A stretch of 64,000 bases of DNA from Spartobacteria bacterium (GTDB lineage Bacteria > Verrucomicrobiota > Kiritimatiellia > RZYC01). A program made the position numbers and the translations under genes. The notes beneath the pieces are model-generated. The model was given only the letters and a program-made list of their open reading frames with translations, searched no databases and was not told the origin of the DNA. How positions within the stretch are numbered: position 1 is the stretch's first letter; every line of letters starts with the position of its first letter. Below are positions 1,180 to 48,942 of the stretch, piece by piece. The stretch lies in contig RZYC01000001.1 in assembly GCA_009930475.1 (NCBI GenBank), forward strand, positions 17,062 to 81,061, given 5' to 3'.

Positions 1180-1273
1180 TTTTACTCCCCCCCCTGTGCA
1201 CCGTGCACAATAAATAGTATAGTGACAGTCACATATTAGTTGACACGAGTTCGTGAGAATGTATATTGGCTGC

Positions 1274-5452: not shown

Positions 5453-5540
5453 AAAAAGTTCCAATGATTGGAACTTTTAACTCTCTACTATTCCAATGAT
5501 TGGAACTTTTAATTTAAAAAGTTCCAATGGTTGGAACATT
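5453..5540. repeat. REP-like palindromic repeat cluster A (3 units)
   Basis: There are three units of the near-perfect palindrome AAAAGTTCCAATGATTGGAACTTTT: 5453-5478, 5491-5510 and 5517-5540. The cluster lies between the convergent dnaX and RAYT paralog 2. Confidence 0.85.
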
Positions 5541-7812: not shown

Positions 7813-7903
7813 AAAAAGTTCCAATGATTGGAAGTTTTAACATGTTGTTTTTCCAGTGGTTGGAAGTTTTGTTTTAAAAAGTTCCAATGATTGGAACTTT
7901 TTA
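7813..7903. repeat. REP-like palindromic repeat cluster B (3 units)
   Basis: Units are at 7813-7838 (…GATTGGAAGTTTT), 7851-7870 (TTCCAGTGGTTGGAAGTTTT) and 7877-7903 (AAAAGTTCCAATGATTGGAACTTTTTAA). Confidence 0.85.
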
Positions 7904-7925: not shown

Positions 7926-7942
7926 TGGCACGCGTATTGCTG
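7926..7942 (+). promoter_or_regulatory. Sigma-54 (-24/-12) promoter for the hsp20-like gene
   Basis: TGGCACGCGTATTGCTG matches the TGGCACG-N4-TTGCW consensus, with exactly 10 nt between GG and GC. It lies about 60 nt upstream of the ATG at 8005. A degraded copy (TGGCACGCCTACTGCT) is at 5577-5592 in the duplicated segment. Confidence 0.5.
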
Positions 7943-8004
7943 TGTTGAATGTCAGATTAAAACATTAAACGAAGTACAGCAGAAAGGATTTGGGGAAAGC
8001 GGAT

Positions 8005-8754
8005 ATGCGACAGTGGAACTGGACAGCACTCATACATAGTATCACGGCAGACCGCATTGTTCTTTTTACCGTTTTAGCTTTTCAGGTTGGTTTGGCCGGC
8101 TGGTTCTATACCTACACCCGCGAGGGTGACAAACAAGCGGCCTCAGAACTGAACACACCTGACGGCCGATTGTCGATCCAACACACACAAAACGTCGCTT
8201 CTCAGCCAGTCGGTCAACCAGCCTTTTCCGATTCATCATCAGTAATACCCTCATCAATGCGCTCAATGCGCACTCCTTCACACAGTGCTGGGATGGGGCG
8301 GGTGATAACCCCGCCCCATCCTGTGGCATTAATGGATGAATCGTTTATCACTCCGATATCTTTTACGGATTCGCGCGCCGTGATGGCTCAGATGCAGGAT
8401 CGTATGCGTCGCCGGATGGAAGCGTATCAGCAGAAAAATGCTCTTATTTATTCTGATGATGACTGGTCTGGACTGGCGCGGAGTCCCACGATGGATATGC
8501 GCGAGCGAGGGGATGTCTATGAAGTCACTTTCAGTATTCCGGATGCGAAAAATCGGGATATTACCACGGATTTGCAAGATCGTCTTCTGACGGTTAATGT
8601 GAATCAATCGAATGAATTTGACAGGGGGCATGCCCAGCAGTCGTTTACCAGTCGCATCCTTCTTCCGGAAGACATTGATAGCGACAAAGCCATAGAGACG
8701 CGTTTCAAAGACGGCAATGTGATTCTGAGTATTTCCAAGTCAGCGGCGCAATAA
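8005..8754 (+). CDS. Membrane-anchored small heat-shock protein (Hsp20/alpha-crystallin family)
   Basis: The C-terminus has an alpha-crystallin-domain pattern (…RERGDVYEVTFSIPDAKNRDITTDLQDRLLTV…SFTSRILLPEDIDSDKAIETRFKDGNVILSI…). The N-terminus has a TM helix (IVLFTVLAFQVGLAGWFY) followed by a P/S-rich linker. The ORF track starts at a TTG at 7990; an ATG lies at 8005. Confidence 0.6.
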   Translation: MRQWNWTALIHSITADRIVLFTVLAFQVGLAGWFYTYTREGDKQAASELNTPDGRLSIQHTQNVASQPVGQPAFSDSSSVIPSSMRSMRTPSHSAGMGRVITPPHPVALMDESFITPISFTDSRAVMAQMQDRMRRRMEAYQQKNALIYSDDDWSGLARSPTMDMRERGDVYEVTFSIPDAKNRDITTDLQDRLLTVNVNQSNEFDRGHAQQSFTSRILLPEDIDSDKAIETRFKDGNVILSISKSAAQ

Positions 8755-8778: not shown

Positions 8779-9513
8779 ATGCTGAACATCTACGATATAC
8801 ACAAGAACTTTGGGAAAATTCAGGCCGTTAACGGACTGTCATTTCATGTGGGCCGAGGTGAGATTCTGGGATTTCTTGGACCAAACGGTGCGGGAAAATC
8901 CACGACCATGCGGATGATTACAGGCTTTCTGAGGCCGAGTTCAGGAAGTGCCGCCATCGCCGGCTATGACATTCAGACCGATTCGTTGAAGGCAAAAAAA
9001 CATCTGGGTTATCTTCCTGAAAATGCACCGGTGTATGGCGATATGACGGTTCTCGCGTTCTTGCGTTTTGTGGCGTCCGTCCGAGGATATCGCGGGCAGC
9101 GTTTGCGTCAATGCCTTGACCGCACGCTGGAACACTGTTCCCTGACATCGGTCATTCATCGCCCCATCCACACCCTTTCCAGGGGATTCCGTCAGCGGGT
9201 CTGTTTTGCACAGAGCATCCTGCACGAACCGGATGTTCTGATCATGGACGAACCAACGGACGGGCTGGATCCCAACCAAAAATTTCTGGTGCGCAAAATG
9301 ATACGGGAGATGGCCAAAGAGAAAGCCATCGTCATTTCTACGCATATTCTTGAAGAGGTGGATGCTGTTTGCAGCCGGTGCATTATTATCAATAATGGAC
9401 AGATGGTTGCCGAAGGCACACCCGAAACACTGCGTCTTCAAAGCCCGGCCGGGCGGTTGGACGACGTTTTCAGACAATTAACGATTCCGAAAAGCGAGGT
9501 CATGGCAACATGA
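8779..9513 (+). CDS. gldA: ABC-2 type transporter ATP-binding protein (GldA-like)
   Basis: It has the Walker A motif GPNGAGKST, a signature region, the Walker B motif LIMDEPTDGLD and an H-loop (244 aa). It is followed by ABC-2 permease, GldG-like and DUF4340-like genes. Confidence 0.7.
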   Translation: MLNIYDIHKNFGKIQAVNGLSFHVGRGEILGFLGPNGAGKSTTMRMITGFLRPSSGSAAIAGYDIQTDSLKAKKHLGYLPENAPVYGDMTVLAFLRFVASVRGYRGQRLRQCLDRTLEHCSLTSVIHRPIHTLSRGFRQRVCFAQSILHEPDVLIMDEPTDGLDPNQKFLVRKMIREMAKEKAIVISTHILEEVDAVCSRCIIINNGQMVAEGTPETLRLQSPAGRLDDVFRQLTIPKSEVMAT

Positions 9514-9785
9514 ACGACGGCGAAGAAATTTCAAAAAAAGTACAGGTGGGGTGTCCGGAGGGTATCCATATGCGCATTGCCGCAGAACTGCTCATAGCGG
9601 CGAGGGGATTCAATGCCGTATGGCACATAGAAAAAGACGGGATGACCGCATCGGGGCAGAGCCTGCTGCAAGTACTGGCACTGGGCGCATGCCTGGGATC
9701 CCAGTTAACACTGTGGGCATCGGGTCCGCAGGCGGCCTCACTCATCGAAAAACTGTCACAAATCATTCAGCAGGGCATCGGGTAG
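9510..9785 (+). CDS. HPr-family phosphocarrier protein (HPr/NPr-like)
   Basis: The 91-aa product aligns along its whole length with E. coli HPr. The active-site His context GIHMRIAAELL matches GLHTRPAA, and the Ser46 context MTASGQSLLQVLALG matches KSASAKSLFKLQTLG. Its start overlaps the gldA stop (ATGA). Confidence 0.7.
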   Translation: MNDGEEISKKVQVGCPEGIHMRIAAELLIAARGFNAVWHIEKDGMTASGQSLLQVLALGACLGSQLTLWASGPQAASLIEKLSQIIQQGIG

Positions 9786-29388: not shown

Positions 29389-30402
29389 ATGAGAAGAAAA
29401 CGAATCAAGCGAGACCACCTAGCGTACTATCACTGCATGTCGCGCATTGTGGGGCGAGGGATGTTACTGGGCGATGTGGAGAAAGTGCACATGTGCCGGC
29501 TTATTCGCCGTGTTGAAGGCTTTACAGGGGTTCGCGTTCTCACCTATGCGATCATGACGAATCACATTCATCTGCTGCTGGAGGAACCAGATCGTAATGA
29601 GATACATCAGATGACTCACGAAGAGCTTGTGAAGCGATTGCTGTATCTGTACTCGCAAGATGATGTCGACGAAATATGTGCTCGCTGGCGCATGTGGGAG
29701 AGGGAAGGCCTTCTGGCCCTGGTGACCGAGGACAAGCAGCGTTATTTGGTACGGATGCATGATATCAGTGAATTTATGAAACAGGTAAAACAGCGGTTAT
29801 CCTGCTGGTATAACAGAAATAACGGACGGTACGGGACGTTGTGGGATCGTCGCTTTACGAGCGTGCTGGTGGAAGATGGTGCGGCACTGCGCACGATGGC
29901 GGCGTATATCGAAATGAATCCGGTGCGGGCAGGAATGGTGGATGACCCGAAAAAGTACCAGTTCTGCGGATTTGGAGAAGCCATGGCCGGTGTAAAACGG
30001 GCGATGTGCGGCATTATGAAGCTGGCCAGCGGACTGGATTGCATGGATGATGCGGTGCGGGCTCGGGAACGGGCGGATTCATGGGATGTTGCGTCGTCGA
30101 TCTACTGGGAACGGATTTTGATGTACGATGAAGTAACGAAAAACCCTCATTTTGCGATGCTGGATATGGATATGATTCCAGATAAATTGCGTAAACGAAT
30201 GAAAATATCTGATTTTGAACGACTGCGATGTCGAAGTCGCTTTTTTTCCGACGGGCAAGTCTTTGGTTCGCGTGACTTTGTGGAAGATTTTTTTGAGCAT
30301 AATCCTGATCACTTTGGAATCACCCGCAAAACAGGTGCTCGGAAAATACGCGGAGGGTGGAACAGCCTGTACTCCCTTCGAGATCTGGGAAACTGGTGCT
30401 GA
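29389..30402 (+). mobile_element. RAYT/IS200-like Y1 HUH transposase paralog 3
   Basis: MRRKRIKRDHLAYYHCMSRIV… carries the HUH motif TNHIHLLL, the tyrosine motif AAYIEMNPVRAG, and the C-terminal block …SRFFSDGQVFGSRDFVEDFFEHNPDHF…LYSLRDLGNWC. It is about 75% identical to paralog 2. Confidence 0.75.
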
Positions 30403-30599
30403 TTCATTAATTATATATATCTTTAATATTTCACATATAGCCTCTTATTTTGTTTATGACATGGTTTTGAAGTAAGTCATTCATAAGTATGTATCACGTA
30501 TCCACATGGCGTGCTGTGTATTACCCGAATCGAATCTTCAGGTCGTTCACATGGCACACCCTGTGCGTCTTGTTTTTCAACACAAAACAAGAAGAGATC

Positions 30600-30800
30600 A
30601 TGGACGCATGTAACGAACAAATTCAAAAAGCAATGGAGTTATCTCGTCAGTTAATTATACTGGCGGACGACGGAGAGGCTGTGAGCGATGATGATGGTTG
30701 TATTTTACTGTATAGCATTATTCGTGATTGTGGGTATCGCATACGAAAGCAGGCAGATCACGAACGTGAAGCGCATAAGATGTCGAATAGATGGAAATAA
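30600..30800 (+). CDS. Small hypothetical Cys-containing protein (66 aa)
   Basis: MDACNEQIQKAMELSRQLIILADDGEAVSDDDGCILLYSIIRDCGYRIRKQ… ends 3 nt before the thioredoxin-like gene. The RBS is weak. Confidence 0.25.
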   Translation: MDACNEQIQKAMELSRQLIILADDGEAVSDDDGCILLYSIIRDCGYRIRKQADHEREAHKMSNRWK

Positions 30801-30803
30801 ACA

Positions 30804-31277
30804 ATGAAAGGTTGGGTTATGAAAAACGCAATATGGATTGGGGTGGCGATAGTGGCCGGAGTATTGATCTTATCAAACCGCGGTCGTGCCGCAGACATTG
30901 ATCATAGCGCATGGATGACGGATTTTCCTGCTGCGCAGGAACAGTCGAAGAAATTAAATAGACCCATGCTAATCGATTTCTCTGGTTCTGACTGGTGTGG
31001 ATGGTGCGTAAAACTGGACAAAGAAGTTTTTAGCCAGGGCGTGTTTAAGGAGTACGCCAAAGACAATCTGGTATTGTTTATGGCTGATTTTCCTCGGCGA
31101 ACACAGCTGCCGGAGGGCATAGCTCAGCAAAATGAAATGTTAGCTGAGAAATATAAAATACGCGGATTTCCCACAGTGATCTTGCTTGATCCGGACGGAA
31201 AAGTGATTGGAACCACAGGATATCAACGCGGGGGTCCAGAGGCATATATATCTCACTTAAAAACGTTTATGAAATAG
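30804..31277 (+). CDS. Secreted thioredoxin-fold protein (thioredoxin-like, WCGWC motif)
   Basis: It has a signal peptide and the CxxC motif in SDWCGWCVKLD, plus a thioredoxin fold (…GFPTVILLDPDGKVIG). An alternative start lies at 30819 (MKNAIW…) with an AAAGG RBS. Confidence 0.65.
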   Translation: MKGWVMKNAIWIGVAIVAGVLILSNRGRAADIDHSAWMTDFPAAQEQSKKLNRPMLIDFSGSDWCGWCVKLDKEVFSQGVFKEYAKDNLVLFMADFPRRTQLPEGIAQQNEMLAEKYKIRGFPTVILLDPDGKVIGTTGYQRGGPEAYISHLKTFMK

Positions 31278-31452
31278 TTTTTCACCGGATCAACTTCGTA
31301 CATACATCCGTAGCTGGTAGTGACAAGCATGTTGCTGCCAGCTGGAATTAATATACACGGTAGATATTGCGTGACATAATTTAGATGCTATAATTCGTCT
31401 ACAAGCGGAATGTTAACAAGATATATTTTTGAAGATATAAGACATACAAACA

Positions 31453-32655
31453 TTGAGGATCAGCACAGTGAATACAGAATTGAAAGAGAACATTTTTTGG
31501 GTTGGATTTGTTGACTGGAACGTAAGGGATTTTCACGGATACACGACAGATAAGGGTTCCAGTTACAATGCCTATCTTATTCGTGATGAAAAGACGGCCC
31601 TGATTGATACAGTAAAAGGACCATATGCCGGCGAGTTGCTGAGACGCATTGAAGCACTGGTTCCTTACGAAAAGGTGGATTACATCATCTGCAACCATGC
31701 CGAACCCGACCATGCCGGAAGCCTCCCGAAAGTAGTGGAAGCCTGCCCGAATGCGGTGGTGGTGTGCGACGCAAAATGCGAAAAAGCTCTGGGACTGCAT
31801 TTTGATACCAGCGAATGGACGTTTAAAATTGTCAAAGAAGGCGACTCCTTATCTTTGGGAAAACGGACTCTGCAATTTATTGAAACACCTATGGTTCACT
31901 GGCCGGAATCCATGTTCACCTACATACCTGAAGAAAAACTGCTGTTCTCCATGGATGCTTTCGGACAGCACTATGCAACGGTGAATCGCTTTGATGACGA
32001 AGCCAATCTGAACATTGTCATGGATGAAGCACGCACATATTACGCGAACATCGTGATGCTGTACGGACGGCAGATCAGCAAGGTACTCGACCGCAGCAGT
32101 GCCATAGACATTGAAATGATCGCTCCGAGTCATGGAGTTATTTTCCGCAGCCATATCGATTTGATCATGGAGGCCTATCGTAACTGGGTTGTATGCAAGG
32201 CACTGCCAAAAGTTGTGATCTTTTATGACACGATGTGGAAGAGCACAGAGAAAATGGCAGAAGCCATCCTGCACGGTGTCGAAGAATTTAATGTGGACGC
32301 CTCATTGATCAACGTGCGAGCCAGCAATATCACGGTACTGGCCACGGAAGTACTGGAAGCAGCGGTCGTTGCCGCGGGGTCGCCGACGCTGAACACCACA
32401 TTGATGCCTGCCATGGCTGGATCGCTCACGTATCTGAAGGGACTTCGCCCGCAGGACAAAAAAGGATTTGCGTTTGGCTCCTACGGGTGGGCTCAGGGCG
32501 GCGCGGCAGACGTGGAGAACTATTTGAAAGATATGAAATTTGAAATTCTGCGCGAACCATTACTTTCCAAGTTTGTGCCCACACCGGAAGTGATTGAAGA
32601 GTGTGTGGAAGCAGGACGTATGCTCGCAAAGGAAGCACTGAAAGTCGTTGAATAA
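31453..32655 (+). CDS. Flavodiiron protein (rubredoxin:oxygen/NO oxidoreductase, FprA/ROO type)
   Basis: It has a metallo-beta-lactamase-like diiron domain (…YNAYLIRDEKTALIDTV…CNHAEPDHAGSLP…) and a C-terminal flavodoxin domain. The probable true start is a GTG at 31468 after a GAGGA RBS; the ORF track starts at a TTG at 31453. Confidence 0.85.
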   Translation: MRISTVNTELKENIFWVGFVDWNVRDFHGYTTDKGSSYNAYLIRDEKTALIDTVKGPYAGELLRRIEALVPYEKVDYIICNHAEPDHAGSLPKVVEACPNAVVVCDAKCEKALGLHFDTSEWTFKIVKEGDSLSLGKRTLQFIETPMVHWPESMFTYIPEEKLLFSMDAFGQHYATVNRFDDEANLNIVMDEARTYYANIVMLYGRQISKVLDRSSAIDIEMIAPSHGVIFRSHIDLIMEAYRNWVVCKALPKVVIFYDTMWKSTEKMAEAILHGVEEFNVDASLINVRASNITVLATEVLEAAVVAAGSPTLNTTLMPAMAGSLTYLKGLRPQDKKGFAFGSYGWAQGGAADVENYLKDMKFEILREPLLSKFVPTPEVIEECVEAGRMLAKEALKVVE

Positions 32656-32657
32656 CC

Positions 32658-34340
32658 ATGGAGTCATCTCAAAAAACACGGGTGTCCGGAACAGAAGTCC
32701 GTATAAAAGGTGTCGCATTAAGCGAAGGCATTGCCATCGCGCGTATCTGCATGTTCAATGAACATCGCCACAGCAATCTCCCGATGTACAAAGTAACGGG
32801 TGATGGAGTAGAACGCGAATTGAACAGGCTGGAGCGGGCGCTTGACATCGCAAAAGAACGAATTGGTCAGTTGCAGGAATCTGTCGTCGAGAACATCGGC
32901 GCGGCGGAAGGAGAGATCTTTACGGCCCACAAGATGATTCTGGATGATCCGTCTCTCCACCAAAAAATCGTGCAGCAGATCGAAACAACTGGAATCAACG
33001 CAGAAACGGCCGTATCACAGGTTCTTGATTCTTTTGAGGCCCGCATGCGGTCGCTCGGCGACGAATATATGCGTGAACGCGCCTCGGATTTTGCTGAAAT
33101 TCGTGATCGGATACTCGATGTGCTGGGCAATATGCACCCCGCGCTGCAATGCGATGATCAGCACTGCCTGCATGGTAAAAACCGTATGGTGGTAGCGGAG
33201 GAATTGACGCCGAGCCTGACGGTGGATCTGGATACATCATCAGTATGCGGATTTGTGACTGAACGCGGCGGCGTGAATTCTCATGCCGCCATTCTTGCCA
33301 GGGCACTGGGTATTCCGGCGGTCAGCGGCATTCGGGGGATTCGTGACATGGTCGGATGCGGCATCGAATTGCTGGTAAACGGTTATGACGGTGAAATCAT
33401 CATCTGGCCCCATGAAAAAACCGTGCATGATATTCTGGAAGCGCATCCTCAGCATCTGCGTCGTCACGAGATCGTGGAGCCGATTGATGGGTTCTGCGTC
33501 ATGGGAAATATCAGTATTTCCCGAGAGACCAATCAGTGCTTAAAGATGCTGCCCGACGGCATTGGCCTATATCGAACAGAATTTGAACTGATGGATGCCG
33601 GACGGTTTCTTACAGAAAACGAATTGTACGAGCGCTTAAAATCAGTAGCACAGGCTTTTGACGGCAAGCCGGTCGTATATCGCCTTCTGGATATCGGCAG
33701 TGACAAGACGATGCCCTTCATGAATATTGATAAAGAGGAAAATCCTGCGCTGGGTTTACGCGGAGCCCGCTTATTATTGAGCCGCCCCGAACTGATTGAG
33801 ATACAGGCACGCGCACTGGCACGTGTTTCCAGGGACTACACCGTTCGTGTTCTGTACCCCATGATCGCCGATGTAGCCCAATTTGAAGCGGTAGACCGCA
33901 TTTTTTCTGCGGCCGCGCAGTCCTTGGGACAAGGGCGCATTCTGAAAGGAATCATGTTTGAAGTCCCCTCCGCCTGTTTAGTAGCAGATGAACTGTTTGA
34001 GCGCATTGATTTTGCAAGTATCGGAACCAATGATCTGTTGCAGTATCTTTTTGCTGTGGATAGAAATAACGAACATGTTGCGGCAGATTACAATCCGGAT
34101 CATCCGATTTTCTGGGGTGTGATACAGCGTATGGCGACCCTGGCTGATAAATATAATAAACCCCTGTCCATGTGCGGCGAAATGGCTGGAAATCCCCGAT
34201 TCATTTCCAAACTGATCGAATGCGGAATTCGCAGCGTAAGCGTAAGTCCCATGCGCATTCCGGACGTACGAGCTGCGGCGCAGAGCAGCCTGCAGCTTTT
34301 GGCAAAGACAAACTCATTTACCGGCTCTGTCGCCGGATAA
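32658..34340 (+). CDS. ptsI: Phosphoenolpyruvate-protein phosphotransferase (PTS Enzyme I)
   Basis: The active-site His region [21 protein letters not shown] matches [43 protein letters not shown] and [19 protein letters not shown] are further PEP-utilising-enzyme signatures. The ATG sits 3 nt after the FDP stop. Confidence 0.8.
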
Positions 34341-34359
34341 AACACAAAAGGAGAACATC

Positions 34360-34749
34360 ATGGCTAAACTAAAAGAAATATACAAATGTGAGTTGTGCGG
34401 AAATATAGTCGAAATCGTTCACGGCGGAGCTGGATCGCTGGTTTGCTGCGGTGAAGCCATGAAGCTCATTGGCGAAAATTCCACCGATGCCGCCACAGAA
34501 AAACACGTGCCCGTCATTGAAAAAATCGACGGCGGTTACAAGGTTAGCGTTGGCAGCACATTGCATCCGATGGATGAAAAACATTACATCGAATGGATTG
34601 AAATCCAGTTCGACAGCAAAGTCGGCCGCAAATATCTCAAACCCGGCGAAGCACCAGTAGCAATATTCAACGGCGTAGATGCCGCGAATGTCACCGCTCG
34701 AGCCTATTGCAATCTGCACGGCTTATGGAAAGCCGCTTACGGAGAGTAA
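34360..34749 (+). CDS. dfx: Desulfoferrodoxin (2Fe superoxide reductase)
   Basis: The N-terminal desulforedoxin-like domain is [34 protein letters not shown] (C-x2-C…CC), followed by an SOR domain (…HVPVIEK…[13 protein letters not shown]…) over 129 aa. An AAAGGAGAA RBS precedes the start. Confidence 0.85.
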
Positions 34750-34752
34750 ATT

Positions 34753-35271
34753 ATGATCAGTAAAACCATGACGGATGCCTTAAACCGGCAAATCAATGCG
34801 GAAGTATATTCTGCGTACCTATACCAGTCCATGGCCGCCTATGCCACATATACCGGCATGAAAGGGGTAGCCAACTGGCTGAATGTTCAGGCAAAAGAAG
34901 AAATGGCACATGCCCAGATTTTTTATCAATATATAAACAGTCAGGGCGAACAGGTCATCCTCTATGCCATTGAACAGCCACCCAGCGAGTTTGAATCGGT
35001 CGGTGATATTTTCGAACAGACGCTGGCTCATGAAAAGAAAATCACGGGACTGATCAACGATCTCGCCAATCTGGCACAGGATGAACGGGATCACGCCACG
35101 GCCAACTTCCTTCAGTGGTTCGTCGATGAACAGGTGGAAGAAGAAGGCAATGCCCGGGATATTCTCGATAAATTCAAACTGACCGGAGGCCAGGGCAACG
35201 GTTTGTTTATGATTGATAGTGAACTGGCTGCAAGAGTTTTTGTGATGCCTGCAAAGCTGTCACAAGGGTAG
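34753..35271 (+). CDS. ftnA: Non-heme bacterial ferritin (FtnA-like)
   Basis: The protein aligns with E. coli FtnA: ALNRQINAEVYSAYLYQSM, QAKEEMAHAQ and ANFLQWFVDEQVEEE. It is 172 aa, with the ATG 3 nt after the dfx stop. Confidence 0.8.
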   Translation: MISKTMTDALNRQINAEVYSAYLYQSMAAYATYTGMKGVANWLNVQAKEEMAHAQIFYQYINSQGEQVILYAIEQPPSEFESVGDIFEQTLAHEKKITGLINDLANLAQDERDHATANFLQWFVDEQVEEEGNARDILDKFKLTGGQGNGLFMIDSELAARVFVMPAKLSQG

Positions 35272-35310
35272 AATGACGGTGCAATCGATAAATACAAAAG
35301 GAGAAATAAA

Positions 35311-35472
35311 ATGAAAAAATATGTATGTAATATCTGCGGTTATATCTACGATCCCGAACTGGGCGATCCCGACAGCGGTGTTGCTCCAGGCACAGCCTTT
35401 GAAGACATTCCTGATGATTGGTGCTGCCCTGAATGCGGCGTAGGCAAAGACGATTTCAGTGCAGAAGACTGA
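35311..35472 (+). CDS. Rubredoxin
   Basis: The 53-aa product [53 protein letters not shown] has the CxxCG…CPxCG motifs. An AAAGGAGAA RBS precedes the start. It is not in the ORF track because it is under 60 aa. Confidence 0.85.
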
Positions 35473-35493
35473 TCGAACAACTGGAGAAAAATC

Positions 35494-36642
35494 ATGCGTG
35501 TAGGCATCATTGGAGCCGGACACGCGGGTGTGGCGGCAGCATGGGATCTGGCGAAGGCGGGGGTACAAGTAACCCTGTTTTCAGCCGAGCCTGTGCTGCC
35601 CTATTTTCGTCCCCGCATCGTCGCCTATGCCTTCGGGCAGGCGACTGCGGCAGAAATAGAAATGCATCCGCTGGACTGGTATGAAAAGCAGAACATCACC
35701 CTCGTCACAAACGAGGCCGTCACTGCTGTGGAAACACAGAATAGTGACTTTAACATTCGCACAGCAACGAGCGAAACACTGGTTGATCACGTCATCATCG
35801 CATCCGGTGCTGGACCGATTATGCCACCATTCGCACGCGGTGATTTTACTTCGGTGGTTCCCCTGTGGTCTATGCAGCATGCAGGACAGATCAGAAACCG
35901 CCTGCGGGATGGACTCAGAATGATGATTATCGGCGGAGGCGTCATCGGTATTGAAGCCGCACTGCGCGCGGCCGACATAGGCGTTAAGGTCAGTATCGTC
36001 GAGAAACTCGATACATTAATGGCCCGCAACTTCAGCCCGGAAGCATCGGAAATGATTCGAGAATTACTTCAGTCCGCACAGATTGATGTGCTGACCGGAC
36101 GTTCCGTATCGACATTGACCCAGACAGACAGCGAAACCGTTCAGGTGACCTTTGAACATCATGATCCGGTGAAAACCGACTTGGTGCTCATGTCCATCGG
36201 CGCCGCGCGTCAGGTCAACTTCCAATTACCAGACGACGTGACCTTTGATCGCGGCATCTGCGTCGATGACTGCATGCGGACCGCGCACCCGGGGATATGG
36301 GCCTGCGGCGATATCGCCCAGTTTACCCAGCCCCTGCCATGTACCGCCCGGGGGGCAACCATACAGGGGAAAGGCATCGCCGCCAACATCATCGCCGGCA
36401 TGGACAGTCAGGATGCAAAACCATATATCGTGGAGCCGGTTGCGATGTCACTGAAGTATAAAAACTATCAGTTCCATTCTGCGGGTGCCGTCGCCTCAGG
36501 CCCGTTGCATGAAGAAAAAATGGAGAGCGATCCCGGAACCTATCGAGTTCGTGTACTGGACGAAAAAGGTCAGCTCCACGGTGTTCAGATGGTGGGAACC
36601 GCACAGGACTTCCAGCAGATGTCAAAAGCTGTTGAATTCTAG
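35494..36642 (+). CDS. NAD(P)H:rubredoxin oxidoreductase (FAD-dependent pyridine nucleotide-disulfide oxidoreductase)
   Basis: MRVGIIGAGHAGVAAAWDLAKAG contains the FAD-binding GxGxxG motif. A second dinucleotide fold (MMIIGGGVIGIEAA) is present. It lies directly downstream of rubredoxin. Confidence 0.75.
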   Translation: MRVGIIGAGHAGVAAAWDLAKAGVQVTLFSAEPVLPYFRPRIVAYAFGQATAAEIEMHPLDWYEKQNITLVTNEAVTAVETQNSDFNIRTATSETLVDHVIIASGAGPIMPPFARGDFTSVVPLWSMQHAGQIRNRLRDGLRMMIIGGGVIGIEAALRAADIGVKVSIVEKLDTLMARNFSPEASEMIRELLQSAQIDVLTGRSVSTLTQTDSETVQVTFEHHDPVKTDLVLMSIGAARQVNFQLPDDVTFDRGICVDDCMRTAHPGIWACGDIAQFTQPLPCTARGATIQGKGIAANIIAGMDSQDAKPYIVEPVAMSLKYKNYQFHSAGAVASGPLHEEKMESDPGTYRVRVLDEKGQLHGVQMVGTAQDFQQMSKAVEF

Positions 36643-36682
36643 TCGACATCATCGATTATACATTAAATAACAGCCTGTTATA

Positions 36683-36770
36683 AAAGTTCCAATGATTGGA
36701 TGTTTTCGTTTTAAAACTTCCAGACATTGGAACTTTTTTTCTGGAAAGTTCCAACGACTGGAACTTTTTT
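36683..36770. repeat. REP-like palindromic repeat cluster D (3 units)
   Basis: Units are at 36683-36707 (AAAAGTTCCAATGATTGGATGTTTT), 36713-36739 (AAAACTTCCAGACATTGGAACTTTTTT) and 36744-36770 (GAAAGTTCCAACGACTGGAACTTTTTT). The cluster lies between convergent gene ends. Confidence 0.85.
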
Positions 36771-37470: not shown

Positions 37471-39297
37471 TTATTCGGGCGTCTTGAGGGGAAGCCGAAT
37501 ACTGAAGGTGGTTTTGCCGGATTTGCTGGTGCAGCTCATAAGACCGTCGTGAGATTCGATGATGTGCTGGCAGATGGACAGGCCGAGGCCGGTATTGGTT
37601 TTGCCGACTTTGGTACTGAAAAAGGGATCGAATATTTTATCCATCACTTCAGGGGGGATGCCGCTGCCATTGTCAGTGACGGTAATTTCGGCGTATTGAC
37701 CGTCATTCGGACAGGTGGCGGCGATGCGGATGGTTCCACCTTCGGGGACGGCATCCCAGCTGTTGACAATGAGGTTCATCAGGACCTGTTTGAGTTTATT
37801 TTCCTGTCCGGCAATGAAGATGGCTTCGCCGGGGTCACGGATGATATTGATGTTTTTCTGCCGCAGTTTGTGGTTGAGAAGGATGAGGATATCGTCGATG
37901 AGCGGCTGGACGGCGACGCGGCGCATAACGGGTATGCGGTTGATTTTTGAAAAGGACAGGAGGCTCTCTACAATACCGGCGATGCGTTTGAGTTCGGCGT
38001 CCACCTTTTCCAGTTTTCGGAGAGAATCTTCGTCCTGCATTTTCCGGCGCATGATGGCGACATAATTACTGATGATGCCCAGAGGGTTATTGATTTCATG
38101 AGCAACACCGGCGGCCAGTTCGGCGATGGATTCGATTTTTTGTGAGCGAAGCAGGTATTCATTAACCTGACGGTCACGCGTGATATCTTCGAAGATGATA
38201 ATGGTTCCGAGATAGCGGTCGTTTTCGTCTTTAAAGGGTCCGATGTGAATGCGCAGGTATTTATTATCGCCATGTTTGAATTCGTCCCATGATTTCTCTG
38301 TTCGCTCATCGATGGCCTTCATCAGTTCGGCCGCCTGTTCCGTGATTTCTCCGTCGGCATCTTTGGGAACGATCGCATCCATCGTCAGATTCATGATTCG
38401 GTCCTGATCGATTTCCAGGATTGCGGATGCGGCATAATTGGTAAGATAGACATGGTTCTTTTCGTCGAGAATCACGATGCCTTCAGGGATATTTTTAATG
38501 ATATCTTCGTTGTATTTTTTGAGCAGAAACAATTCCCGGTTGTGATGTTCCAGTTCTTCGCGCGACATAACAAAGGAATAGGTGAGCTTGATAAGCTTCA
38601 CCTTATCGATATCCTGAATTTCCTCGGTTCCGATATTACGTCCGTTCTGCATGATGGTGACACGATCGGCGAGGTCAAATATCTCGTTCATGTTGTGCGT
38701 AATATAAATCACACTGCGTCCCTGGTGGCGCAGACCGAACAGCAGTTTATAAACGCGCTCCATTTCCACCGGCGTAAGCTTAAAGGATATCTCATCGAAA
38801 ATGATCACTTCAGGATGATTAATCAGCACTTTTGCCAGTTCCACCATATGCTGATCGGCCTGCGGCATCAGGCTGAGAGGGATATTGAGATCGAGATCGA
38901 TTCCTAATGAATCCAGCAGCTGCTGCGCTTCTTTCTCCATGACACGCCGTCGCACGCCACCCCACCAGTAGCGCTTAAAATATCCGGCATACATATTCTC
39001 CACCGCATCCAGCGCATTGATCACGTTATTATGCTGATAGAACATGCTGATGCCGTCGCGCATGGCGGTATGCGGCGTGAAATAAGGCATATCAACGCCG
39101 CGATAATAGATCAGACCTTTTTTCATGCGCACTGCACCGCTGAGCACCTTGACGAGGGTGGATTTTCCGGAACGGTGTTCGCCGACAAGACCGTGAATTT
39201 CACCTTTCCGAAGATCAAAATCCACGCCCTTCAGCACCTGTGTGGTGCCGTAATTCACATGAATATTGCGCATCTGCACAATAAGGTCGGATGTCAT
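37471..39297 (-). CDS. Cytoplasmic sensor histidine kinase with an N-terminal ABC-transporter ATP-binding domain (NBD-PAS-HisKA-HATPase_c fusion)
   Basis: Residues 1 to about 240 carry the Walker A motif GEHRSGKST, a Q-loop, a degenerate signature LSLMPQADQHMVELAKVL, the Walker B motif VIIFDEIS and the H-loop YITHNMNE. This region is most similar to the N-terminal half of CUT2 sugar ABC ATPases such as the neighbour at 45117-46607. A PAS-like region follows, then an H-box AHEINNPLG, then HATPase_c (…DNGSGIPPEV…GLGLSICQ…). No TM helices are present. The start overlaps the response-regulator stop (ATGA). Confidence 0.8.
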   Translation of the reverse strand: MTSDLIVQMRNIHVNYGTTQVLKGVDFDLRKGEIHGLVGEHRSGKSTLVKVLSGAVRMKKGLIYYRGVDMPYFTPHTAMRDGISMFYQHNNVINALDAVENMYAGYFKRYWWGGVRRRVMEKEAQQLLDSLGIDLDLNIPLSLMPQADQHMVELAKVLINHPEVIIFDEISFKLTPVEMERVYKLLFGLRHQGRSVIYITHNMNEIFDLADRVTIMQNGRNIGTEEIQDIDKVKLIKLTYSFVMSREELEHHNRELFLLKKYNEDIIKNIPEGIVILDEKNHVYLTNYAASAILEIDQDRIMNLTMDAIVPKDADGEITEQAAELMKAIDERTEKSWDEFKHGDNKYLRIHIGPFKDENDRYLGTIIIFEDITRDRQVNEYLLRSQKIESIAELAAGVAHEINNPLGIISNYVAIMRRKMQDEDSLRKLEKVDAELKRIAGIVESLLSFSKINRIPVMRRVAVQPLIDDILILLNHKLRQKNINIIRDPGEAIFIAGQENKLKQVLMNLIVNSWDAVPEGGTIRIAATCPNDGQYAEITVTDNGSGIPPEVMDKIFDPFFSTKVGKTNTGLGLSICQHIIESHDGLMSCTSKSGKTTFSIRLPLKTPE

Positions 39298-40616
39298 AAC
39301 GCCATATCCAGCTTTTTCATACGGTTGTACAGCGTACGACGACTGATATTCAGGATATCGGCGGCCTTCTGTTTGACACCGCCGCTGCGTTCCAGTGCAT
39401 CTTCGATCATGGAACGACTTAACCGTTCGAAGGCATTTTCATAGGACTCCAATTCATCCTGCTGAAGCAGTTTGGTATATTGCGCGGCCAGATGTTCCGG
39501 CTCAATCAACGGCTTTTCACAGAAAATAACCGACCGCTCAATACAGTTCTTGAGTTCACGGACATTGCCCGGCCAGGTATGGACGCGGATGATCTCCTCC
39601 ACAGAAGGTGAGACGCCCTGAATATTTTTGCCATACACCTTGTTGTACTGCTCGATGAAATAACGGGTCAGCATCATGGCATCATCGGTGCGGTCACGCA
39701 GTGGCGGCAGGTGCAGCGTAATAACGGACAGCCGGTAATACAAATCCTCACGAAACCGCTGGTCTTCGATCAATTCATCCAGATCCTGATGGGTTGCAGC
39801 AATGATGCGGATATCGGTCTTGATGGTTTTATTTCCCCCGACTTTTTCGAATTCCTGTTCCTGAATCACCCGCAGAATTTTTGCCTGGGTTTTCAGACTC
39901 ATATCGCCGATTTCATCCAGAAACAGCGTGCCGCCATTGGCCATCTCGAAGCGCCCAATGCGTTCTTTTATCGCGCCGGTGAAGGCACCTTTTTCATGAC
40001 CGAACAATTCACTTTCCAAGAGTTCGTCGGGAATGGCGGCGCAGTTGATCTTGATAAACGGGGCATCGCTGCGCCGGCTCATCTGCTGGATCGCTCTCGC
40101 CACCAGTTCCTTCCCCGTTCCGCTTTCGCCGGTAATAAGAACCGGAGCATCGGTGGGGGCGGCCTTATCGAGCAGCGACAATACTTTTCTCATCTTCGCA
40201 TCATAAGTAACAATGCCGCCCTGCGGCAGATGAACTCGACCGCCTGCCTGCACCGCCTGTCGGGCATGTTCCCCTATTTCCTGCAGCAGCTGATCGAGAT
40301 CAATGGGTTTGGTATAGACGTTGACGGCACCATAACGCATGGCAAGGACGACATCCTGCACAGTGGGATATCCTGTCATCATCGTTACCGGTAAATCCGA
40401 GGCGATGGACTTGATTTTCTGCAGCAGTTCCACGCCGCCCATTTCAGGCATACGAATATCCAGCATCACCATATCGTAGTTGGTTACCGCGATTTTACCC
40501 AGTGCTTCGGACGGGTGCATGGTCCAGTCCGCGATCATGCCTTCGGATTCCAGCAGTTCCGAAAGCGAGCGGCACATTTCTTCTTCGTCATCCACAATAA
40601 GAATGCGGTAATTCAT
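39294..40616 (-). CDS. Sigma-54-dependent response regulator (NtrC family: REC-AAA+-HTH)
   Basis: The REC domain has a phospho-acceptor Asp (MNYRILIVDDEEE…VMLDIRMPEMGG). The AAA+ sigma-54 activator domain has GESGTGKE, GAFTGA and ESELFGHEKGAFTGA. A C-terminal Fis-type HTH is present. A GAGG RBS precedes the start. Confidence 0.85.
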   Translation of the reverse strand: MNYRILIVDDEEEMCRSLSELLESEGMIADWTMHPSEALGKIAVTNYDMVMLDIRMPEMGGVELLQKIKSIASDLPVTMMTGYPTVQDVVLAMRYGAVNVYTKPIDLDQLLQEIGEHARQAVQAGGRVHLPQGGIVTYDAKMRKVLSLLDKAAPTDAPVLITGESGTGKELVARAIQQMSRRSDAPFIKINCAAIPDELLESELFGHEKGAFTGAIKERIGRFEMANGGTLFLDEIGDMSLKTQAKILRVIQEQEFEKVGGNKTIKTDIRIIAATHQDLDELIEDQRFREDLYYRLSVITLHLPPLRDRTDDAMMLTRYFIEQYNKVYGKNIQGVSPSVEEIIRVHTWPGNVRELKNCIERSVIFCEKPLIEPEHLAAQYTKLLQQDELESYENAFERLSRSMIEDALERSGGVKQKAADILNISRRTLYNRMKKLDMAL

Positions 40617-40664
40617 AGTTAAAACCTCAATTTGAGACACAGATTAACGCTTTTGTGCCCCTTT

Positions 40665-43631
40665 TTAAAAGTTCCAATCATTGGAACTTTTTTCCGGAAA
40701 CCTTCCAATCATTGGAAGTTTTTTTGCTGAAAGTTCCAATGGTTGGAACTTTTCAGCTTCGTGCGCTGCGGCACATTTGAAGCGCGAAATAAGTTCTGTC
40801 AGCTGCGTCGACTGGTGATCAAGGGTTCCTGCGGTCTGAGCCGTTTCATCGGCACCGGCCATGGTTTGCTGGGTGACCTGATCAATCTGTTCCATTCCGA
40901 TCTGAATCTGACTCACGGCCTCGGCCTGTTCGCGGGATGCATCGGCTATATGCTGTACATGTTCGGACGACTTGGAAATACCGCCTACCATGGACTGGAA
41001 TGTTGCGGAAACAGCATGGACGGATTGCTGTCCGGCTTCCACACGGTTCACCGTTTCGTCGATGAGTTCAGCCGTTTCTTTGGCCGCTTTTGCACTGCGT
41101 CCGGCCAGGTTGCGTACTTCATCGGCCACGACCGCAAAGCCTTTGCCGTAGGTTCCGGCGCGGGCGGCTTCGACGGCGGCGTTCAACGCAAGCAAATTGG
41201 TCTGAAAGGCAATGTCGTCGATGACTTTATTGATCTTGGCTATTTGCTGACCCGATTCCTGGATGGCCTGCATGGCCTGCCCCATCATTTCAATTTCTTT
41301 TTCACCCACGCCGGCACTGCGCTGCACCGAAGCGAATTCACGGGAGGCCACATGGGCTTCATTGGCATTTTCATTGGCCTGATGGGATATCTGCGTCATG
41401 GAACTGCTGATTTCCTGCAGGGAAGAGGCCTGACGGGTAGCGCCCTCAGCCAGCTGCTGACTTGCATCATTAATCTGCTGTGCTCCTTCATGAACCTGTC
41501 CCGCCGTATCCGAGACCTGACTCAGGGCCTCACTCAAGTTGTCGAGCATGGAGTTAACATTTGCCTTAAGTTCCGCCAGCCGCCCGTTGTATTCACCGTT
41601 TACACGGATGGTTAAATCGTTTTCTGCCGCCGCGTTCAGTGCGTTGGCCGTTTCATCCAGTGGATCAATAACCGCATCCATGGTGTGATTGATGCCTTCC
41701 ACGATCTGACGGAAGGCCCCTTCATGATTTTCAGGGTCGGCCCGGAAAGACAAATCGCCTGACTGGCCGGCCTCGGCCAGCTGCTGTACATCCTGAATGA
41801 GCAGTCCGATGGCACCGATACATTGATTGATATCGTTCTTCAGTGTCTCGAATTCTCCCTTGAAATCGGCGGCAATGGGCTCGGGCAAAATGCCCGAACC
41901 CAATGCACGGATGCACGCAGCCGCTTTAGTTAGGGGAACGGAGACGGCATCAAGATTGGCATTAAATTCTTCAATGATCGTACAAAAAACGCCGCGATGA
42001 CCGGAGGCATCGGCTCGAACCTGTAATTGACCGGCTATCCCCGCTCTGGCCAGCGATTCGACGTCGGTGATCATATTTTCCAGCGACTCCATCATGGCGA
42101 TAAAACTGGGGGTAAGTCGATCGGCCTCGGATAATTTGCCCATTTCACGATAGGCGGCAAGATCTTCCAGACTGCCTTCGGCGATATGCTCGGCTGTATG
42201 CTGCAGCAGCAGAAAACGATCGCGCAAGTTATTGGCGGCCTTCGCAATCAGCAGATAATCGCCCGTACAGTTTTCGTCCATAGAGCCGGTCATATCATTG
42301 ACAGACAACCGTTCCATCATGCCGATCGCGTTATGAACGGGCGTGGCTACTTTGTCCATCATCTGATTCATGCGCTGGACCATTTCCTGAAAGACGCCAT
42401 CGAATGCTGACACGTTGCCGCGATAGGATAATTCACCCTGCTCGCAGGCCTGAGTCAGCTCTCCAACCTGCCCGATAATCGAGCGAAGGGTCTCTACAAT
42501 AGAACCGAAGGCTCCATATATCCGGCCGATTTCATCACGGCTTGAAGTCGTCAAATCAATATCAATATTACCATTGCGAATATGCCCCGCTGCATCGACC
42601 AATGCACGGATGGGACCAATTATACGACGAATCATGATACCTGCCAAAAAAATGGAAAGGATCAGACCTCCACATAACAGCAGCCCCATGTTGCGGATAC
42701 TGGTTCTGCTCATGGCTGCATCCGCCTCTGCAGCCTGCGCCGCAATATCCGAGCTGGTCTGGGCGACGGTGCGAGCCTTGTCGATGATCTCCTGTGAAAG
42801 GCTGCTCATCCTGGCCACATGGGATGCAAGGGTAACCGTGGTATCCATGCAGGTCTGTACGTTTTTCACGAAATTCATGACCTCTTTCTGCTGCCCGTCT
42901 ATGGCGGCAAGCATACTCCGGTTTCCCGTCTCTTTCTTCAATTCATCCAGCAGCGGTTCCACTGAAAGAGCGGTGGCCTCAGCCAGCTTCCCCATGTCTG
43001 GCTGCTGCGTATGGATGAACTGCATCAACTGCACCTGTGCCTGATTGATCGTGGCGGCAATTTGCTGAATGATATTCATCTGCGTGATGCGAATATCGAT
43101 CACTCTGCGATCGTAATCATAATCCAGTGCTTCGGTAAGTCTTTCTTCTGCATCAACTTTCTGCTTTGCTGCGCTGTCCGTTACCAGTGTTGCGGTTTTG
43201 GCGGCCTGTGCTGCGGCATCACTGCGCTCCGAGACCAGATCAGCGCACTCAATGTATAAATTCCGGTAATCCTTTTCCGCAGTCATCGCGGCCCGAATTA
43301 TCCCTTCCAGCTGTGTCAGTTCCATACTGGCTGCCAGAGAATCCAGCGAGGTCAGTCCTGCGCGCACCGCATCCAGTGCCGTGACACCTCTGTCATGGAC
43401 AGACGGATTTTGTTCCAATAAATAGCGTTTTTCACTGATAAGCACCTGTCCGACATGACTCTCCACTTCAAAGGCATCTTGTTGAAGAACATATGTGCGG
43501 GTTGTCAGCTGGTTGATTTCTTCGCTGAGGCGTACCACCCCGCTAATGCCCATCGCCCCAATGAGCATCGCCACCAATGTGCTTACCGCGAAACCAATCA
43601 CAATCTTGCTTTTTATCGAAACAGTTATCAT
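40665..43631 (-). CDS. Methyl-accepting chemotaxis protein with a periplasmic sensor domain and a multi-HAMP array
   Basis: It has two TM helices, several HAMP-like repeats, and a conserved MCP signalling domain (…[21 protein letters not shown]…[46 protein letters not shown]). A GGAGG RBS lies 9 nt before the chosen ATG (MITVSIK…). The last 30 codons are REP-derived. Confidence 0.85.
40667..40754. repeat. REP-like palindromic repeat cluster E (3 units, opposite orientation, centre base C)
   Basis: Units are at 40667-40693 (AAAAGTTCCAATCATTGGAACTTTTTT), 40698-40725 (AAACCTTCCAATCATTGGAAGTTTTTTT) and 40729-40754 (GAAAGTTCCAATGGTTGGAACTTTTC). The cluster lies inside the 3' end of the MCP reading frame. 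Confidence 0.85.
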
Positions 43632-47873: not shown

Positions 47874-47970
47874 AGTGACAGACACATAAATATTGACTTG
47901 CGATAGGGATTGTATACAGGGAAAGAGTGACAGACACATAAATATTGACTTGCGATAGGGATTGTATACA
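47874..47970. repeat. Tandem direct repeat (2 x 45 bp, 7-bp spacer) immediately upstream of RAYT paralog 4
   Basis: AGTGACAGACACATAAATATTGACTTGCGATAGGGATTGTATACA occurs at 47874-47918 and again, identically, at 47926-47970. The unit is related to the region upstream of paralog 1 (…AGTGACAGTCACATATTAGTTGACACGAG…, 1221-1250). Confidence 0.8.
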
Positions 47971-47979
47971 TTGGATGGC

Positions 47980-48942
47980 ATGAGAAGAAAAAGGATAAAG
48001 CGAGAACGGTTGGCTTACTACCATTGCATGACACGTGTGGTGGGTCGTCAAATGCTGCTGGGATCGGTGGAGAAGGAGCACATGCGTGTGCTGATTCGAA
48101 AAATTGAGGGGTTTACGGGGGTTCGGGTTTTGACTTATGCGCTGATGACAAATCATATTCATTTGCTGTTGGAAGAGCCGGATCGGGCGACGGTGGTAGA
48201 GGATGATGTGTTGGTGGAGCGAATGCGTGCGCTGTATTCGGATGCGGAAATGGAGGAGATTCTGTTGCGGTGGGCGGATTGGCTGGACCAGGGGAATGTG
48301 GCTGCGGTGGAGAATGATAAGCATCTTTACAGAAGAAGGATGCATGATATCAGCGAATTCATGAAGACGTTGAAACATCGGTTTTCATTTTGGTATAATC
48401 GGTTGCATGATCGCAAGGGGACATTGTGGTCGGAACGGTTTAAGAGTGTGCTGGTTGAGGGCGGAAATGCTTTGAGGACCGTGGCGGCGTATATTGAGAT
48501 GAATCCGGTACGGGCGGGTTTGTCATGTGATCCGTCGGAATATCCATTTTGCGGACTTGGTGACGCTGTGACTGGGTCGGGCGCGGCGAAAGATGGTATT
48601 ATGGAGCTGGTGGTTCAAAAGAATGCGGCTTTTGGAATACATGCAGTAGAGCACTCATGGGACGTTCTGTCGGTTGTCTACTTTGATGACGTATTGATGT
48701 ACGGGCGAGCAAAGAGTGACGGGCAACCTCTTGAGCCGGCGGTGGAGTTGTTGTGTCGCAATCGCTTTTTCACTGACGGGCAGGTTCTTGGAGGTAGGGA
48801 TTTCGTTGAGGAATTTTTTCGAGCAAACAGAGCGTATTTTGGACCGCAGAGAGTGGCAGGCGGTCGCAAAGTTAAGGGATGGACGGGATGTCTTTATGCG
48901 ATCCGAGATGTGGGACGAAGTGCGGACGTGCCCAAGAAATAG
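47980..48942 (+). mobile_element. RAYT/IS200-like Y1 HUH transposase paralog 4
   Basis: MRRKRIKRERLAYYHCMTRVVGRQMLLGS… carries the HUH motif TNHIHLLL, the tyrosine motif AAYIEMNPVRAG and the conserved C-terminal block. It is about 80% aa-identical to paralog 1. The ATG start was chosen; the ORF track starts at a TTG at 47962. Confidence 0.75.

Follow-up and report, generated by a model that had tools for sequence, protein, structure and literature searches.

A distinct Enzyme I clade associated with oxygen-defense genes in Kiritimatiellia and other bacteria

Why should an enzyme of sugar phosphotransfer be encoded in the middle of an operon that otherwise serves oxygen defense? The question is raised by a 64,000-nt stretch of contig RZYC01000001.1 from a Spartobacteria bacterium (assembly GCA_009930475.1; the whole stretch is hereafter called the window), in which eight co-directional genes on the forward strand (30600-36642, from the list of open reading frames (ORFs) of the window) include ptsI, the gene for Enzyme I (EI) of the phosphoenolpyruvate (PEP)-dependent phosphotransferase system (PTS). 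Its neighbors encode, among others, a flavodiiron protein (FDP), a desulfoferrodoxin (Dfx) and a rubredoxin. A first-pass annotation had proposed a regulatory link between PEP or energy status and oxygen defense, or a moonlighting PtsI, rather than sugar uptake. Our results indicate that the enzyme is not an ordinary PtsI with a second occupation: judged by its sequence, it belongs to a distinct, cysteine-bearing EI clade, here labeled EI*, set apart from ordinary PtsI. EI* is conserved in association with a sigma-54-controlled set of genes for defense against oxygen and nitric oxide (NO). Its recruitment probably served to connect oxygen defense with the energy and redox state of the cell, not to import sugar, and a regulatory link between PEP status and oxygen defense is plausible. 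On balance, we favor by a modest degree the reading of 30552-36770 as one sigma-54-dependent operon for defense against oxygen and reactive oxygen species (ROS), with a dedicated EI paralog that would act as a redox-gated regulatory phosphotransferase.

EI* and its conserved association with oxygen-defense genes

The window's PtsI (560 amino acids, 32658-34340, + strand) is a true Enzyme I. All three EI domains are present, namely the HPr-binding PEP-utilisers_N domain (PF05524, 1.4e-31), the mobile phospho-His domain PEP-utilizers (PF00391, 1e-18) and the PEP-binding barrel PEP-utilizers_C (PF02896, 1.4e-81); the family model TIGR01417 PTS_I_fam was passed at 399 bits against a cut-off of 341.7, and the protein aligns over its full length with the solved EI structures 2hro (286 bits), 2wqd and 2hwg. 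The narrower equivalog models were not reached, as for PRK11177 (336 bits against 824) and the EI-Ntr model NF008283 (338 bits against 583). The phospho-acceptor His209 (33282-33284) and the catalytic Cys506 (34173-34175) are invariant in 124 clade members and 77 ordinary EI, and the same was found in further alignments. As far as these residues tell, EI* is a catalytically intact EI paralog.

With the exception of P0001, which is the protein of the window itself, the top 120 relatives in the database share 51-59% identity with it, and the named sources among them are Kiritimatiellae, Lentisphaerae, Verrucomicrobia or unclassified-bacterium metagenome-assembled genomes (MAGs). Genome and metagenome scans added members labeled Phycisphaerae, Omnitrophota and 'PVC group'; in the genome scan with full-length EI patterns, the matches listed were mostly ordinary ptsI, which served as the control set, together with at least four EI* loci. 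Ordinary EI are only 32-41% identical to the window's PtsI.

What sets the clade apart is a set of cysteines. In the alignment, Cys31 (32748-32750), Cys165 (33150-33152), Cys170 (33165-33167) and Cys234 (33357-33359; all + strand), and usually a further one at position 440, are found in 122-124 of the 124 EI* members, and the 77 ordinary EI lack them, but for position 31, which is Cys in four sequences. Also absent from the 77 is the short insertion with Cys170, which forms a C-x4-C pair and precedes the strand leading into the His domain. From an alignment to E. coli EI and the subdomain boundaries of the EIN structure, we take the four positions to lie in the phospho-histidine alpha/beta subdomain and in the linker from the HPr-binding subdomain. 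In a wider sample all four are kept down to ~41% identity, and five members have lost all four jointly (L004, L125, L128, P0122 and P0123). Moreover, in L006, L007, L160 and some nine representatives at 50% clustering, which form a sister group, position 234 is not Cys, and a new Cys is present in an extended loop (C-x5-C-x4-C). Such an all-or-none pattern, together with the swap of a ligand, is what is expected of a tetra-Cys metal or cluster site, and it is fairly probable that the four cysteines form one metal or redox site. Our search of the open-access literature turned up no account of an EI rich in cysteines, nor of a ptsI gene placed in a rubrerythrin/Dfx operon.

The association with stress genes can be best illustrated by comparing loci with at least 4 kb of flank, searched by tblastn within 6 kb with the window's stress genes, rubrerythrin, DsbD, glucose-6-phosphate dehydrogenase (G6PD) and others as queries. 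Of the 29 EI* loci, 19 had at least one stress-gene homolog, as did a single one of the 100 ordinary ptsI loci (Fisher p = 1.4e-14); at least two were present at 13 of the 29 and at none of the 100. The reverse holds for HPr, which is adjacent in 0/29 EI* loci and in 61/100 ordinary ones (Fisher p = 4.5e-10). The first-pass annotation had named conservation of ptsI in this position in related genomes as a check on its proposal, and the outcome is strongly positive. We are highly confident that EI* is a conserved functional member of the stress regulon.

The gene orders vary while their content recurs. In L083/L084 the order is activator, small ORF, thioredoxin, large Thioredoxin_7 protein, FDP, EI*, rubrerythrin, Dfx, ferritin, rubrerythrin-like protein, rubredoxin and, further on, G6PD; L089 and L096 have an order of this type plus DsbD. 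A shorter version (activator, small ORF, sometimes thioredoxin, EI*, rubrerythrin, a 122-aa ORF, DsbD, G6PD) is seen in L088, L090 and L092, and L005 has activator, small ORF, thioredoxin, EI*, ferritin and DsbD. In L087, rubrerythrin is followed by a fusion of an ArsC-like domain to EI*, a large thioredoxin, ArsP, FDP and rubredoxin; in L085/L086, EI* overlaps by its start a GltD/NfnB-like reductase gene; and in L082 a single ORF of 952 aa encodes a fusion of FDP with EI*. The context is also conserved in L003, L004, L094, L106, L110, L123 and L124. By Pfam, L103 has an Rrf2 regulator upstream and a hemerythrin downstream of EI*, and AhpC/TSA (L002) and OsmC (L091) occur as neighbors; an Rrf2-like ORF precedes EI* in L099. 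The protein following EI* in L003 and L103 we tentatively take to be the hybrid-cluster protein Hcp, by its N-terminal cysteine motif. G6PD is present in eight EI* loci.

Two minor features of these loci may be recorded. One is a conserved ORF without a Pfam match, 122-129 aa long, found in several loci directly 3' of EI* or rubrerythrin (L088:10306-10674, L082:3136-3525, L090, L092) at 65-68% identity; the copy after the FDP::EI* fusion in L082 was considered as a Dfx and rejected, as it matches the 122-aa ORF of L088. In L089 (9938-12050), a HigB-toxin/Peptidase_M78 (antitoxin-like) pair and a 199-aa ORF are inserted between EI* and rubrerythrin, within an operon that is conserved apart from this.

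Sigma-54 control and a possible phosphoryl relay

How is the operon controlled? The first-pass annotation had advised looking upstream for operators of the PerR or Rex type; scans for both found no sites near the operon, and the conserved control element is instead a sigma-54-type -24/-12 promoter, TGGCACACCCTGTGC (30552-30566, + strand), 33 nt upstream of the first gene. This first gene is a small ORF of 66 aa (30600-30800, +) with two conserved cysteines (DDGC, RDC) and a conserved C-terminal His. Profile searches gave no family match for it, and the protein homolog search, whose word index is insensitive for short proteins, returned one near-identical sequence only. However, ORFs in the same position in L083, L088 and L089 are 43-54% identical to it, a weaker homolog (34%) has this position in L005, and tblastn revealed further homologs in L090, L092, L096 and L123. 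The promoter element taken alone is not significant, with 8 matches against 6.4 expected in 64 kb. Its conservation is more telling: the TGGCAY-N7-GC element occurs upstream of the homologous small ORF in 8/8 independent loci covering that region, where its chance per 120-nt stretch is ~0.004.

Just upstream, seven relatives encode an activator composed of LMWPc (ArsC-like), PAS, Sigma54_activat and HTH_8 domains (in L005 the contig holds the C-terminal end only), and in 7/7 relatives the promoter is preceded, at a distance of 82-163 nt, by a TGTCTCA motif. The activators' PAS domains carry the motif D-C-H-x7-C-x3-C-x2-C, that is, C-x8-C-x3-C-x2-C, of which C-x8-C-x3-C is the spacing of C52/C61/C65 in OrpR of D. 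vulgaris, where these three cysteines are needed for [4Fe-4S] redox sensing (PMC8359166). The ArsC-like domains reach 126-141 bits on the pI258-type ArsC model TIGR02691, below its cut-off, and keep the CX5R(S) P-loop once start codons are corrected. Most activators had been called about 16 codons too late, which cut off the P-loop. Family members include L083:1614-3356, L088:5096-6853, L089:1450-3213 and L126:11284-13038, and the CX5R motif is degenerate in L126. When we asked in reverse whether such activators always accompany EI*, most protein matches were ordinary ArsC or activators cut short by the ends of small contigs; two loci ended at a contig edge or in a pseudogene beside a transposase. 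In the open-access literature we found no account of this sigma-54/TGTCTCA/ArsC-PAS regulon.

The ArsC-like domain also appears next to EI* itself. In P0108/L087 it is fused to the N-terminus of EI*, with its LCVGNSCRS and C-x6-C motifs intact, and in L094 a stand-alone ArsC-like gene lies directly upstream of EI*. PTS modules are shuffled in a similar way, which suggests an EI*-ArsC partnership, although we regard it as doubtful that the ArsC-like domain is the direct partner of EI*. In other bacteria, ArsC-like (LMWPc) domains are fused to HATPase_c, to an ArsR-type helix-turn-helix (HTH) and to PhoU (P0305, P0321, P0337, P0351, P0367, P0374 and P0375); the ArsC fold may thus be a recurrent sensor module in signaling proteins.

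We propose the following mechanism. EI* would autophosphorylate from PEP, so that its phosphorylation state would report the PEP/pyruvate ratio, which should fall in an anaerobe when oxygen inactivates pyruvate-oxidizing enzymes. The four cysteines in the phospho-histidine subdomain and hinge would bind a metal or Fe-S cluster, or form disulfides, and thereby gate phosphotransfer by redox state. The phosphoryl group would then pass to a regulatory acceptor, either an orphan HPr encoded elsewhere in the window (9510-9785) or the P-loop Cys of the ArsC-like, EIIB-fold-like domain, which occurs as part of the activator, in fusion with EI* and as the product of a neighboring gene; by way of this acceptor EI* would tune the regulon or feed back on it. 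That the role of EI* is regulatory or sensory, not one of transport, is fairly probable. The boldest form of the idea we hold to be rather unlikely: it would make EI* the first case of an Enzyme I with redox sensing of its own, with a tetra-Cys Fe-S or thiol-switch site at the hinge that gates phosphotransfer from PEP and with transfer to the ArsC-like Cys of an OrpR-like activator, or via the orphan HPr.

EI* shares three domains, the phospho-His and the catalytic Cys with canonical EI (E. coli, 2hwg; Staphylococcus carnosus, 2hro), at 32-36% identity over the full length, but differs in four extra conserved cysteines, the C-x4-C insertion, the lack of an adjacent ptsH and of nearby EII genes, and its setting in an oxidative-stress operon. 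The system that it would work most like is EI-Ntr (PtsP), a signaling EI with an added sensory element that is tied to sigma-54 biology in many proteobacteria, and likewise a paralogous, sensory, non-transport EI. The sensor of PtsP is an N-terminal GAF domain, whereas the profile search found no GAF match in the window's PtsI, whose PEP-utilisers_N domain begins at residue 17; the candidate sensor of EI* is the Cys set inside the EIN domain, and neither ptsN nor ptsO is adjacent to EI*. The detoxification clusters rbo-rub-roo of Desulfovibrio and the dfx/rd/fprA/nror PerR regulon of Clostridium acetobutylicum have the same set of FDP, desulfoferrodoxin, rubredoxin and NAD(P)H:rubredoxin oxidoreductase (NROR), plus ferritin or rubrerythrin. 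To our knowledge, however, these contain no EI and are controlled by PerR or sigma-70, not by sigma-54, whereas the type of operon seen in the window has a conserved sigma-54 promoter and no PerR or Rex box.

For control of activators by PTS phosphoryl groups there is precedent in the LevR-type sigma-54 activators and in MtlR/LicR, whose EIIB-like domains are phosphorylated on Cys, and the LMW-phosphatase/ArsC fold resembles EIIB(Cel). Yet no PRD, EIIA or EIIB Pfam domain is present, and phosphorylation of the ArsC-like domain is purely inferred. Like OrpR, the relatives' activators combine PAS, AAA+ and HTH domains with PAS cysteines spaced C-x8-C-x3-C (PMC8359166), but they add the N-terminal ArsC-like domain with its CX5R P-loop and a fourth PAS Cys, and their targets are oxygen-defense and not orp genes.

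Several observations weigh against this interpretation. With regard to the association, the sampled EI* loci are phylogenetically non-independent, even if at least ten different gene orders are represented among them; about one third of the EI* loci with adequate flanks show no recognizable stress neighbor (L095, L100, L101, L109, L118), and the FDP::EI* fusion is known from a single short contig. With regard to the activator, tblastn with the relatives' activators found none in the 64-kb window, and the TGTCTCA upstream motif is absent from it as well, so that the proposed link from EI* to the activator is not visible in this genome. The fusion of the ArsC-like domain to EI* is rare, with no further case among the 150 best 50%-cluster representatives. 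Furthermore, the ArsC-like domains are ~50% identical to ordinary thioredoxin-coupled arsenate reductases, and may thus be thiol-redox sensors without phosphoryl chemistry. As for the cysteines, they could hold a purely structural zinc, and in the AlphaFold model of EI* (mean pLDDT 81.5) the cysteine loop reaches ~60 only.

If the boldest form is true, a new PTS-derived signaling branch would govern oxygen defense in PVC-group and other anaerobes. Enzyme I is among the best studied of bacterial signaling enzymes and is known to respond to the PEP/pyruvate ratio, to alpha-ketoglutarate and, in PtsP, to input through a GAF domain; redox state would join the inputs of PTS-type signaling through a widespread EI paralog that carries a cysteine site of its own. 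Such an enzyme would also offer a handle on how central carbon status is coupled to oxygen tolerance in Kiritimatiellia, Lentisphaerae and Omnitrophota, which are poorly studied anaerobes, and the finding defines a testable regulon by its sigma-54 promoter, TGTCTCA motif, activator with ArsC-like and OrpR-like PAS domains, and small Cys protein.

Housekeeping, metabolic and accidental explanations

Could EI* simply be the one Enzyme I that these lineages have, a housekeeping component of a rudimentary regulatory PTS (EI and HPr, no EII) whose gene rides in a highly expressed stress operon, its cysteines holding a lineage-specific structural zinc without sensing function? The window does encode an HPr family protein (9510-9785, + strand; PF00381, 63 bits; TIGR01003, 55 bits against 47.9) with equivalents of His15 and Ser46. 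Its gene, which the first-pass annotation had overlooked while rightly stating that no EII genes are nearby, lies 23 kb from EI*, adjoins no ptsI, hprK or EII gene, and overlaps by 4 nt the end of a GldA/LptB-like ABC ATPase gene (8779-9513). None of the ~60 window ORFs scanned encodes an EII, HprK or EIIA, and PTS_EII Pfam domains are missing from the annotated neighbors of the relatives' EI* loci. The window has ABC sugar transporters, and together with the lack of EII genes this fits the proposed role outside sugar uptake. HPr is a possible phosphoryl acceptor of EI*.

The orphan HPr, the single ptsI of the 64-kb window and the HPr-binding domain retained in EI* all fit a housekeeping EI, and the four-Cys pattern would suit Zn(Cys)4 equally well. 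Moreover, a 'rudimentary' PTS that senses PEP/pyruvate has already been proposed as a regulatory cascade for Kiritimatiella (PMC5148204). However, ordinary EI, mostly with ptsH directly upstream, occur in the same phyla, namely in Kiritimatiellaeota (L067), five Omnitrophota MAGs (L012, L035, L056, L064, L078, all ptsH-ptsI loci), Planctomycetia, Phycisphaeraceae and Verrucomicrobiota, so that EI* looks like a paralog, at the level of the phylum. In addition, EI* changes its position while the company of stress genes stays, and it is found fused to FDP and to the ArsC-like domain, which passive hitch-hiking does not predict. We consider a housekeeping EI unlikely, though worth keeping in mind, and prefer a dedicated regulatory paralog.

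A second alternative gives EI* a metabolic task. Together with an ArsC-like, phosphatase-fold protein it might run a shunt from PEP to pyruvate and Pi, which would provide pyruvate as a non-enzymatic scavenger of H2O2 or divert carbon into the G6PD/NADPH branch that these clusters encode. Pyruvate is set free when EI autophosphorylates, alpha-keto acids remove H2O2, and ArsC of the pI258 type retains some phosphatase activity, all of which counts for the shunt, as do the eight EI* loci with G6PD and the ArsC/LMW-phosphatase-fold domain fused or adjacent to EI*. Most loci, the window included, nevertheless have no ArsC-like partner, the conserved HPr-binding domain would be superfluous, and PEP would be wasted in fermentative anaerobes; this makes the shunt improbable beside a regulatory EI*.

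It would also be tempting to regard the juxtaposition as an accident of local gene order, caused for instance by rearrangement through RAYT-like elements, with ptsI serving ordinary sugar phosphotransfer. A transposase-like ORF directly precedes the operon, with REP-like repeats flanking it. This is highly improbable, because the association recurs in more than 15 loci, in varied arrangements and in several phyla, and because the window contains no EII genes and ptsH is never adjacent to EI* (0/29). Lastly, the first-pass annotation had allowed that profiles might reveal another PEP-utilizing enzyme, such as a fragment of PEP synthase or of pyruvate phosphate dikinase (PPDK), and the shared PEP-utilizers and PEP-utilizers_C domains do give secondary matches to such models (108-188 bits against cut-offs of 598-843 for both enzymes together, PEP synthase alone 179-188 against 598-740), but these cover only C-terminal parts, profile searches found no N-terminal ATP-grasp domain of PEP synthase/PPDK, and the EI-specific N domain (PF05524, E = 1e-31), the passing of TIGR01417 and the full-length EI alignment make the protein an Enzyme I and the chance of another enzyme negligible.

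Operon layout and further features of the window

Profile searches agree with the gene identities given in the first-pass annotation. After the small ORF, all genes again on the + strand, comes an exported thioredoxin-fold protein (30804-31277; Thioredoxin_7, DsbH-like), described as periplasmic, which carries the motif WCGWC and, in its N-terminal part, a hydrophobic stretch, and which scores 115 bits on the DsbH model NF043050 and does not reach its cut-off of 190. The class-A flavodiiron O2/NO reductase (31468-32655; ODP and Flavodoxin_1; 395 aa) has its best PDB match in 1ycf (384 bits; 1e5d, 325 bits), and its start is likely the GTG at 31468, preceded by a GAGGA ribosome-binding site, in preference to the TTG at 31453. 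Downstream of ptsI lie genes for desulfoferrodoxin, a 2Fe superoxide reductase (34360-34749; TIGR00320, 186 bits against 146.9), a non-heme ferritin (34753-35271), rubredoxin (35311-35472; NF045768, 105 bits against 90) and an NROR-like flavoprotein (35494-36642; Pyr_redox_2; best PDB match 3klj), the last a family-level assignment with no equivalog cut-off reached. FDP, rubredoxin, superoxide reductase and the NROR-like reductase, encoded together, make up a rubredoxin-linked set for the detoxification of oxygen and ROS. The gene order is identical in an independent Logan assembly (L001).

The intergenic spacers are, in gene order, 3, 190, 2, 19, 3, 39 and 21 nt. Most are thus as short as the 3-20 nt reported earlier, and the departures are the ferritin-rubredoxin (39 nt) and rubredoxin-NROR (21 nt) spacers and the 190 nt between the thioredoxin-like gene and FDP, which is the sole real gap in the operon and whose place is taken in relatives by the gene for a large Thioredoxin_7 protein. 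ptsI starts 2 nt past the FDP stop, not 3 as first given, and ends 19 nt before the GGAG-led dfx start. Neither a promoter nor a terminator would fit into these junctions, so that co-transcription of ptsI with its neighbors, claimed earlier with near certainty, is very probable. The gap contains an exact direct repeat, AAGATATA-N6-AAGATATA, at 31418-31439 (+), unique in the window; it had been noticed before, with a spacer of 7 nt and at 31413-31436. On the 3' side of NROR, two REP-like hairpins (CTTCCAGACATTGGAAC and GTTCCAACGACTGGAAC; 36717-36770, +), each followed by a T-run, are likely the 3' end of the operon transcript. A generic scan for promoters and terminators gave chance-level matches only and passed over these hairpins because their stems are AT-rich.

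Where seven relatives encode the ArsC-like/PAS/sigma-54 activator, the window has a RAYT-like/IS200-like Y1 transposase ORF (29389-30402, +). Apart from an NtrC-type response regulator (39294-40640), which nothing ties to the operon, the window encodes no activator; 3590-5305, considered as the missing activator, was rejected, as it is DnaX. The NtrC-type sigma-54 regulator (- strand) is overlapped by the gene for a histidine kinase that, unusually, has an ABC-transporter ATPase domain at its N-terminus (37471-39297, -; ABC_tran-PAS-HisKA-HATPase_c), and next to this pair are genes for a multi-HAMP chemoreceptor of 1028 aa and for a sugar ABC transporter. A perfect sigma-54 promoter consensus, TGGCACGCGTATTGC, is found at 7926-7940, 50 nt upstream of the gene for a 254-aa protein with a C-terminal Hsp20 domain (7990-8754), which suggests a wider sigma-54 stress regulon in this organism.

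The transposase ORF upstream of the operon is one of four paralogous Y1_Tnp (IS200-like/RAYT-like) ORFs in the window, the others being at 1253-2272 (+), 5901-6950 (-) and 47962-48942 (+). They encode 326-349 aa, about twice the typical RAYT length, and share 52-74% mutual identity. A REP-like palindrome, GTTCCAATGATTGGAAC, has 9 matches against 0.13 expected, in intergenic clusters at 5458-5537, 7818-7897, 36717-36764 and 40671-40749, often with T-runs after them. These palindromes are plausibly the REP partners of the RAYT-like genes, and two copies (36717-36764) make up the likely terminator of the operon.

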